Positions 43,064 through 44,153 of a DNA stretch of 64,000 nucleotides are shown piece by piece. A program made the translations under genes and the position numbers. This DNA comes from Candidatus Heimdallarchaeota archaeon (GTDB taxonomy: Archaea; Asgardarchaeota; Heimdallarchaeia; JABLTI01). The notes under the pieces are model-generated. The model was given only the letters and a program-made list of their open reading frames with translations. It had not been told where the DNA came from and ran no database searches. Within the stretch, counting starts at the first letter, position 1, and every line of letters begins with the position of its first letter. The stretch spans positions 25,171 through 89,170 of the forward strand of contig JAHLVW010000025.1 of the NCBI GenBank assembly GCA_019058275.1, read 5' to 3'.

Positions 43064-44119
43064 TTGAAAACAACATACTGGAAACACGGTTGTTTAGTAA
43101 AGGTCATTGGAGATCTAAAAACAGATTCAAAAGCTATTTTTACCCCTCTTGGCAAGTTAGTCTATGGAGAAAGAGAATATCCTACTATTTTGAATGGGGT
43201 TCGAGGGGGTGTAAAAATCAGTTGGGTGGGGAAGTCAGAAGAACAATTAAGAAAGAAGCTTGAACAATTCCTTCAGAAAAGATTCATGGGAACGAAAACA
43301 ACTGAAGGATTTGGTCGAGTTGTTTGGGAATCGTGTGAAATACAAGAGTTTACACAAAAAGCTATAACTGTGGTTATTAAATTATCAGAAAAATGTCCTC
43401 AATGCAAGAAAAAAACAGTCATCTATGAAAAAACAGCTAAACAAAAACAATGTACTACTTGTCACCAAACATGGCACTACAAAAAACTCAAAATAAGAAC
43501 AGGTATACGAGCTGATTATCCTAAAGAACTACAGAAGCTACTCATAGCACTTTTGCTACATGATTTCGTACACACAGCAAAACATCACAGCAAAATCTTT
43601 CAAGAGATAAGCATTAATGATGAAGTGATAGCTGACGCATGTAAAAACCACCATCAACTAGCAAGGGGGGAAAATAAATATCAAATTTTAGTACAGTATT
43701 ATGACAGACTAGCCTCTCGTATCAGTCGCAAAAAACCTTTACACACAACTTTCCGATACAATAAATTACAAGGATCGATTGATTTTAAGCAACTGAAACA
43801 AGAAATAGAAGAAAGACAAACAAATCACGTAAAACTTTATTCCTATATTTACAACTCAAAAGAATTAAAAAGAATAGTCGAAGCTTTAGACTATGGGAAA
43901 AATCCATTGCGAAATCATCTACTAATAATGGTGAATATGGCAATAAATGATTACTATAGCAAAAAATTAAAAGTAAACAAAGGAAATATCTCACTATCGG
44001 CAAGTGAAAGAGGAAAACTCGACACTGCTATGGATGCTGAGAAGCATTCCTTCACTGACCATGATAACGCTAACTCTGAGAGCCCAACCAACTCAAAGAA
44101 GAGAAGGCTAGAAACATAG
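43064..44119 (+). CDS. Cas5-like RAMP + Zn ribbon + Cas10-type (permuted) HD nuclease fusion; frame open upstream to ~42998
   Basis: Upstream in-frame 'LTSPIII' RAMP beta1; G-loop MGTKTTEGFGRV; CPQC..CTTC; ALLLHDF..HH..YDRLAS..LRNHLL. Confidence 0.7.
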   Translation: MKTTYWKHGCLVKVIGDLKTDSKAIFTPLGKLVYGEREYPTILNGVRGGVKISWVGKSEEQLRKKLEQFLQKRFMGTKTTEGFGRVVWESCEIQEFTQKAITVVIKLSEKCPQCKKKTVIYEKTAKQKQCTTCHQTWHYKKLKIRTGIRADYPKELQKLLIALLLHDFVHTAKHHSKIFQEISINDEVIADACKNHHQLARGENKYQILVQYYDRLASRISRKKPLHTTFRYNKLQGSIDFKQLKQEIEERQTNHVKLYSYIYNSKELKRIVEALDYGKNPLRNHLLIMVNMAINDYYSKKLKVNKGNISLSASERGKLDTAMDAEKHSFTDHDNANSESPTNSKKRRLET

Positions 44120-44153
44120 GCAGAGAAGAAAAACGATAAGAAAAAAATCGTTT
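43988..44153 (+). ncRNA. Putative structured ncRNA overlapping the 3' end of the Cas5-HD gene (copy C)
   Basis: Three-copy conservation with compensatory changes; terminal hairpin AAACGAT/ATCGTTT. Confidence 0.6.

Follow-up and report, generated by a model that had tools for sequence, protein, structure and literature searches.

Does the conserved end of a gene without a family name encode only the tail of a protein, or does it hold a structured RNA, and what would such an RNA be for? The question is raised by positions 43988-44153 of a 64-kb stretch of Candidatus Heimdallarchaeota DNA (contig JAHLVW010000025.1; the whole 64,000-nucleotide stretch is referred to as the window), which consist of the final ~130 nucleotides (nt) of an open reading frame (ORF; 43064-44119, plus strand) and 34 nt 3' of its TAG. 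Our analysis answers that the element is a sense-strand structured RNA, built of two stem-loop domains of irregular shape and, at its end, a hairpin that varies between copies, and that it is under purifying selection. It is the 3' end of a two-gene cassette in which a gene for a Cas7-like RAMP protein is followed by a gene for a protein with RAMP, Zn-ribbon and Cas10-type HD parts (RAMP-HD from here on). The RNA family is undescribed in Rfam and, as far as could be found, in the literature. As to its role, we lean towards the RNA being the partner of the cassette's proteins that has also become fixed as the leader of the gene downstream.

The complete copy (copy C) begins inside the RAMP-HD ORF, of which it covers the last 134 nt, and continues for 48 nt beyond the stop. 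BLAST comparison within the window returned two further copies, A and B, each situated behind only the last 65-90 codons of the gene. A covariance model (R1) was built from eight copies, to which a structure of 47 pairs had been assigned by hand, and was used to draw further copies from the genome of the window and from its relatives. In this way 46 copies of the RNA, which is about 175 nt long, were detected in 12 genomes of the class, with seven copies in the window's own genome. Ten of the 11 genomes of the window's own family have matches, and one other family gave a single match. The scan with Rfam 15 identified only the two tRNAs, and inside 43986-44160 it gave nothing even at E values of up to 10. 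In IMG/VR, 24 viral contigs have a 15-mer in common with the probe used, and none of them matches the RNA model. Across the copies, a Shine-Dalgarno-like motif follows the terminal hairpin in the forms GGTGAT, GGTTAY and GGAGAY.

The original prediction, made from the three copies of the window, held that compensatory base changes define a multi-hairpin RNA and named significant covariation in a larger alignment as the test. In the model-based alignment of the 46 copies, standard pairs make up 88.8% of the cells, and in 43 of the 47 pairs both partners have changed. Covariation reaches a score of 0.406, where shuffles give 0.168 and none of 500 scores as high; when the partners are slid by 1-3 columns the score falls to 0.03-0.07. 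Since a model-based alignment leans towards its own model, covariation was recounted on a structure-blind MAFFT alignment, and there it is 0.255 against 0.148 (again 0 of 500 shuffles as high), with slid controls at 0.07-0.11; the only weak helices are those visibly misaligned by MAFFT, and helices P3-P5 are 91-92% paired. The predicted multi-hairpin RNA is thus upheld by strong covariation in both alignments. The folding energy is in accordance with this, as the sense strand of copy C has a minimum free energy of -44.9 kcal/mol (a z of -4.0 in comparison with dinucleotide-shuffled sequences).

The antisense strand of copy C also folds below its shuffles (z = -3.1), as would be expected if a functional RNA, antisense to the gene end, were made from the minus strand. 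This we regard as very improbable. On the sense strand G·U cells outnumber A·C cells by 161 to 57, and two pairs are held as G·U in more than 30 copies, with G-C or U-A as the only alternatives. Read on the minus strand, the two kept G·U pairs become C·A mismatches, and pairing drops from 88.8% to 83.7%. The excess of G·U and the two conserved G·U pairs therefore place the RNA on the strand of the gene.

The pairing scheme first proposed survives in Domain 1 and in the terminal hairpin, and had to be redrawn in the middle. The outer ATCTCA/TGAGAT helix of Domain 1 is present (P1), the swap between GGCA/TGCT and GACA/TGTT is found again at a pair which is GC in 35, AU in 4 and GU in 4 of the 46 copies, and the variable inner helices that close on GAG/CTC are there as well. 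The terminal A-loop hairpin with differing stems corresponds to P7, the stem of which, compared by eye, has a different sequence in nearly every copy (CGAU/AUCG, CAGU/ACUG, CCAA/UUGG, CUGAC/GUCAG). The CTC-nnn-GAG triloop that had been drawn as a second domain is 85% pairable, which is no better than a slid control, and the AGCC/GGCT pairing drawn as a third is only 60% paired and shows no covariation. What is found in this part of the RNA are P3, P4 and P5, nested within the long-range stem P6 (Table 1). The stretch CAUAG of P6 is retained also in copies in which the ORF stops elsewhere. One alternative is a local hairpin with a GAGA loop (GAUGC/GCAUC), a candidate which is 78% paired with covariation no higher than in controls, its sequence being too invariant to judge. 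We also noticed that the 5' strand of P1, AUCUC, could pair with the GGAGAU form of the Shine-Dalgarno-like motif, which together with the GAGA-loop hairpin would make a three-way switch. Such a switch sequestering the Shine-Dalgarno-like motif was rejected: it has no supporting covariation, and the motif varies while AUCUCA is constant.

A further claim of the prediction was that indels and shifted stop codons between copies reveal that the protein tail is not the conserved thing, with conservation that follows codon position as the opposing outcome. The indels and shifted stops are indeed seen. Relative to the start of the RNA, the upstream frame has its stop codon at positions that range from -99 to +206 nt, some full-length genes end ahead of the RNA and others inside its first 20 nt, and the same nucleotides are read in different frames among family members (for example ...KRRLET and ...EKARNIGREKE). 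In seven copies of common frame and length, the entropy at codon positions 1, 2 and 3 is 0.32, 0.35 and 0.36 in the part that overlaps the RNA, in comparison with 0.65, 0.46 and 0.98 in the upstream coding sequence, which speaks against codon-driven conservation. Variable stops together with flat codon-position entropy therefore mean that it is not the protein tail that is conserved. In the AlphaFold2 model of the RAMP-HD protein (mean predicted local distance difference test score, pLDDT, 81.5) the tail residues 314-351 are disordered.

The RAMP-HD proteins (family P0001) are named in databases only as 'hypothetical, Heimdallarchaeota', and profiles of Pfam, PADLOC and NCBIfam assign them to no family above cut-off or significance. 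Their kinship was recognized from the AlphaFold2 model. Residues 153-322 resemble the N-terminal HD domain of Csm1/Cas10 (Z 7.9 and 6.7, at 17-20% identity), residues 1-100 resemble RAMP proteins (a Csm4-like chain, Cas6 and Cmr3, with Z of about 4-4.8), and between the two parts lies a Zn-ribbon; H166, D167, H196, H197 and H285 are invariant in the family. A Foldseek search of the same model against the PDB gave nothing at E <= 0.001, only weak Csm1 rows. The two genes are paired at the full-length loci, with a Cas7-like gene ahead of at least most of the RAMP-HD genes, and every full-length RAMP-HD gene that was found carries the RNA. Profile matches of the cassette to Cmr1, Csm3, Cas7 and Cas5 are weak (E from 5e-4), all of them under curated cut-offs. 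No Cas1 and no transposase is present in the cassette, and there is no CRISPR array within the window. From these protein features the cassette would fit the array-less, type III-derived ARAMP class of Asgard archaea. In the window the Cas7-like gene is broken by an in-frame TGA at 42678-42680 and the RAMP-HD gene is without the ATG start of its homologs (MENI...), its frame being open from 42947 with a TTG at 43064 as the first ATG, GTG or TTG. With both lesions this particular cassette looks freshly broken and in decay. Elsewhere in the same genome conventional CRISPR-like arrays are located on contigs C4, C26 and C68 of G000 (genomes, contigs and loci are given here by our G, C and L numbers), and one of their repeats begins GTTTGAATCGTACTATTGTAGT.

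A second Heimdall family, f3, has the same kind of protein, as the RAMP-HD profile matches 16 of its 22 genomes, many of the matches being C-terminal fragments. The region conserved 3' of its shorter RAMP-HD genes and fragments (L076-L090) is a different one, about 150 nt long; of the 14 pairs predicted for it, 13 show compensatory changes. Its end is formed by a GC-rich hairpin plus AUCCUUAAGA, and it has the loop motif AUGA...AGAAGG.YUGGA in common with Domain 2. Since the f3 genes are also followed by a covarying RNA, this type of cassette has in general an RNA behind its last gene.

A full-length gene stands ahead of about 17 of the 46 copies, and the rest are found behind remnants that start at residue 134 to ~300 or behind nothing recognisable. 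The next feature starts a few bases after P7 and the Shine-Dalgarno-like motif. According to Pfam, these features include genes for the RFC small subunit, Rpo7, S19e, L37e, ABCE1, Snf7, a Roadblock protein and a DUF6320 membrane protein; at other copies a tRNA follows, with either its 5' or its 3' end. Different species have the same gene downstream, with truncation points upstream that differ. At the Rpo7 locus, for instance, G000 and G008 have the full cassette, in G010 it is cut at residue ~164 and in G002 at ~299, and in G005 it is reduced to the RNA alone. These are therefore old loci that have lost the genes in place, starting from their 5' side, and have kept the RNA. The Rpo7 gene of G003 is free of the element, and the region upstream of it is an ordinary AT-rich one, which indicates that in the other genomes the element was inserted between such genes and their former upstream region. 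It was also observed that rpo7 apparently has an ATT start, 8 nt after GGAGAC, in several species (L039, L069, L070, L051, L063), and that in the outgroup G016 the same ATT comes after GGGTGAT.

Selection on the solo copies can be followed at copy B, which is located between tfb (30888-31877) and the start codon of rfcS (32252). In comparison with the ortholog in G010 the RNA is 84-94% identical, the flanking tfb and rfcS about 78%, and the spacer after tfb, as a neutral reference, 56-68%. Median pairing is 0.85 in solo copies and 0.87 in copies with a full-length gene. At 31997-32194, again in comparison with the G010 ortholog (L030), the ~85 nt upstream of copy B are about 94% identical, with differences that are mostly synonymous or conservative and one in-frame 3-nt indel. 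Their pattern suggests that either the remnant ORF of 65 amino acids or an upstream extension of the RNA may still be under selection there.

If the RNA is a partner of the cassette's proteins that has also become a leader, it would be made as the 3' part of the cassette transcript. Inspection of the element by eye gave no convincing TATA-like box of the archaeal kind at a place suited to the RNA's 5' end. The RAMP proteins would recognise it as a scaffold or as a processing substrate, and not as a guide of the CRISPR type. Such recognition is proposed because RAMP and Cas10-HD folds belong to families that bind CRISPR RNA (crRNA) and because the conserved unpaired motifs suggest a specific partner. 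With the cassette placed between a host gene and its former promoter, the RNA would become part of the leader of that gene, and the two roles together would account for its being kept at the same loci while the protein genes go from the 5' side. Solo copies might act with RAMP proteins supplied by intact cassettes elsewhere, in cis on the downstream transcript, or in both ways. In a bolder version, which we hold to be unlikely, the RNA would be the missing RNA subunit of an array-less ARAMP, a scaffold, hard-wired and not of CRISPR origin, by which the Cas7-like/Cas5-HD complex is loaded onto the transcript to which the RNA itself belongs. If this were true, the complex would sit on, or cut, the 5' end of an essential mRNA or of a tRNA precursor, as an RNA-tethered addiction or shut-off switch or as a guide with a flank-derived tail, and the arrangement would be either a forerunner of arrays or an exaptation that leads away from them.

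Several observations weigh against a partner that doubles as a leader. The link between RNA and proteins consists of genomic association and fold family only, and the Z scores of the fold matches are middling, though consistently CRISPR-related. Four copies point towards the 3' end of a convergent tRNA and cannot serve as leaders there. G002, G005 and G011 have RNA copies and gene fragments only, with no intact protein gene (in assemblies that are 69-84% complete), which is no more than a hint that the RNA may function in the absence of the proteins. When the RNA body was compared with the 250 nt downstream on either strand, in search of guide-like complementarity or duplication, the longest words were no longer than between unrelated loci. 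A serious rival is a purely cis-acting leader required for expression of the housekeeping gene downstream. Such a leader could be a 5' untranslated region or an element for processing or stability, perhaps a ribozyme or the binding site of a host factor; the RAMP proteins would have no functional tie to it, and the cassette would only have brought it along. We judge it rather improbable, though ahead of the other alternatives. The position of most copies speaks in its favour, as they end about 6-8 nt plus the Shine-Dalgarno-like motif before a start codon, and the genes that follow are core genes. The RNA is kept at syntenic loci after the decay of the cassette and is more conserved than its neighbours, there are the genomes with RNA copies and no intact protein gene, and the AT-rich upstream region of Rpo7 in G003 implies that elsewhere the element displaced a native one. 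A leader with no tie to the proteins is, however, hard to reconcile with the four copies that adjoin convergent tRNA genes and with the several that lack a nearby gene in the same direction. Apart from this gene family the RNA is not found, and RNA and gene family co-diverge between two archaeal families. In G003 and in outgroups the same essential genes do without the RNA, and no known ribozyme or leader family matches it.

The place of the RNA at the 3' end of an effector gene, its overlap with the coding sequence, its sharp 3' boundary against unrelated flanks and its orphan copies are all as in the omega RNA of TnpB, which raises the question whether it is a programmable guide RNA. The folded part would then be a scaffold, the transcript would continue into the flank, and the initial bases of the adjoining gene or tRNA would direct the Cas7/Cas5-HD complex for homing, retention or regulation. 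This appears quite improbable to us. The cassette has no transposase or Cas1, its loci are stable across species and not polymorphic, and a guide that matches the adjoining essential gene would be self-targeting. The comparison with the downstream 250 nt, given above, exceeds its controls neither in complementarity nor in duplication. A target-site duplication or att-like repeat shared by the 3' tail and the preceding 4 kb was found neither in the window nor at four other cassettes of its genome. An explanation without any RNA function, by gene conversion or recent duplication of the gene end or by single-stranded DNA hairpins of transposon ends as in IS200/IS605, could draw on the multi-copy nature of the family, its many 5'-truncated copies and the LAGLIDADG-domain gene nearby. 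It is scarcely credible, being largely refuted by the covariation, the conservation of copy B and the flat codon-position entropy. Pairing is kept by compensatory changes in stems that differ, whereas conversion would homogenise them, the paralogous proteins are only about 40% identical, truncation points that differ by species at the same locus argue for decay in place, no transposase is there, and the viral contigs gave no copy with the probe used. The hairpin of single-stranded DNA had already been named as an alternative in the original prediction, and the occurrence of the same loci across species, the conserved G·U pairs and again the missing transposase make it unlikely.

Table 1. Positions of the RNA, its helices and the neighbouring features in the window (helices in copy C).
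Feature	Position	Strand	Evidence or remark
Copy C, structured RNA, full covariance-model match	43986-44167	+	R1 199.8 bits (G000:C11:69156-69337)
Copy B, solo RNA with gene remnant (last ~85 codons)	32073-32253	+	R1 131.3 bits
Copy A, solo RNA with gene remnant	15716-15899	+	R1 87.9 bits
Domain 1, long hairpin with hypervariable, always-paired tip	43988-44043	+	Helices 1-4 85-100% paired; 13 of 17 pairs with changes on both sides
P1, outer AUCUCA/UGAGAU helix	43988-43993 / 44038-44043	+	
P1a, GGCA/UGCU helix	43998-44002 / 44026-44029 + 44033	+	
P1b	44004-44006 / 44023-44025	+	
P1c	44010-44012 / 44018-44020	+	
Alternative local hairpin GGAUGCU-GAGA-AGCAUUCC	44032-44050	+	Candidate; competes with P1 for UGAGA
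Domain 2, with conserved 6x6 internal loop	44050-44128	+	Helices 5-10 85-98% paired; each pair changed on both sides in some copy
P6, long-range stem enclosing the internal loop and P3-P5	44050-44063 / 44115-44128	+	
P3, GCU/GGC	44069-44071 / 44106-44108	+	
P4, CUCU/AGAG (also CUCG/CGAG, CUUG/CAAG)	44074-44077 / 44100-44103	+	
P5, GAGx/xCUC	44080-44083 / 44091-44094	+	
TAG stop of the RAMP-HD ORF, within the 3' strand of P6 (CAUAGG)	44117-44119	+	
P7, terminal hairpin with purine/A-rich loop	44131-44153	+	All 7 pairs with changes on both sides
Shine-Dalgarno-like GGTGAT, directly 3' of P7	44154-44159	+	Next start codon ~6-8 nt on in most copies
RAMP / Zn-ribbon / Cas10-type HD gene (P0001 family)	42992-44119	+	Homology, AlphaFold2 fold matches
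Cas7-like RAMP gene	42075-42992	+	Weak RAMP, Cmr1, Csm3 and Cas7 matches
AbrB/MazE-like protein, divergent neighbour	41810-41989	-	Pfam
LAGLIDADG and helix-turn-helix (HTH) protein, 542 amino acids, divergent neighbour	40115-41743	-	Pfam
tRNA directly 3' of copy C, with two intron-like insertions (37 and 34 nt)	44166-44299	+	Rfam tRNA, 32.9 bits
tRNA with ~34-nt insertion before the T-arm, convergent with copy A	15900-16008	-	tRNA match, 37.7 bits

The tRNA behind copy C (Table 1) was overlooked by ARAGORN; it starts about 5 nt after the Shine-Dalgarno-like tail of the RNA and is probably dependent on read-through from the cassette. The tRNA at copy A was not reported by the whole-window scan at gathering thresholds. 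Copy A adjoins its 3' end, and in G010 the same tRNA site is occupied by a full-length cassette (L071). The divergent LAGLIDADG and HTH protein has homologs (525-547 amino acids, 33-38% identity) in the same divergent position upstream of three of the five cassettes examined in the window's genome, including those on contigs C88 and C89, and may be a regulator or a nuclease that belongs to the cassette.

Among known systems, the omega RNA (or reRNA) of TnpB in IS200/IS605 and OMEGA is similar in being a sense-strand structured non-coding RNA that overlaps the 3' end of an effector gene and runs beyond its stop, with DNA better conserved than the protein tail, with orphan copies and with a sharp boundary at the flank. 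It differs in that the cassette proteins are RAMP and HD proteins and not RuvC, with no Pfam match to TnpB or OrfB, and in that the cassette is without transposon ends, TnpA, a target motif or an identified guide, at loci which are syntenic and not mobile. From the end hairpins of IS200/IS605, which act as single-stranded DNA, the element is set apart by the lack of a Y1 transposase gene, by the same loci being occupied across species and by the conserved G·U pairs. The aloposon paper (PMC8813620) was considered too and is unrelated. The hairpins of crRNA and of CRISPR repeats, recognised by Cas5, Cas6 and Cas7, are comparable in that proteins of the RAMP fold are the expected binders and that the stem of the terminal hairpin is variable in sequence and conserved in structure. 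The cassette RNA, in contrast, is single-copy, ~175 nt long and made of two large domains, with no tandem repeats, no repeat-spacer array and no recognised 8-nt handle.

With ToxI of type III toxin-antitoxin systems and CreA of CreTA the RNA shares the small structured form, the coupling to a nuclease or effector, the orphan RNAs and a persistence that suggests addiction. Unlike them, it comes with neither tandem repeats nor an identified toxin gene and stands 3' of the proteins and 5' of essential genes. Cis-regulatory leaders, such as ribosomal-protein leaders and riboswitches, likewise lie directly 5' of the Shine-Dalgarno motif and start of core genes and have conserved unpaired motifs. 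They differ from the element in that here one type of RNA serves many unrelated genes and also tRNAs, some of them convergent, that it originates from a defence-like cassette, that close relatives have the same genes without it and that it has no Rfam match. In the archaeal lineage closest to eukaryotes, then, an RNA outlives the genes it came with in front of genes of replication, transcription, translation and ESCRT. It is a well-supported new family for RNA databases, and it makes testable whether a defence-derived RNA was domesticated as a shared leader or is an addiction device.

The closest comparison is with ARAMP (Asgard RAMP), CRISPR derivatives reportedly described by Makarova, Wolf, Shmakov, Liu, Li and Koonin in 2020 (CRISPR J 3:156). 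In the review passages that deal with them, ARAMP are Cas5/Cas7 systems of Asgard archaea which derive from type III, lack an array and carry additional nucleases, usually HNH or PD-(D/E)xK, and most include a distinct Cas1; these passages mention no RNA component (PMC8730458; PMC12669027). The cassette of the window shares the Asgard host and the absence of an adjacent array, and would share the Cas7 and Cas5 homologs, here putative and strongly diverged with some affinity to type III, and the associated nuclease. Compared by way of the same review descriptions, it departs from ARAMP in that its nuclease is a Cas10-type HD fused to a small RAMP, that it has no Cas1 and that it ends in a conserved structured RNA. 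The current CRISPR classification has both ARAMP and HRAMP among its array-less derivatives of unknown mechanism, and the reviews suggest that they may not use RNA guidance in the CRISPR way (PMC8730458; PMC12669027). With a covarying RNA physically present in each cassette, it becomes testable whether array-less RAMP proteins still work with RNA.

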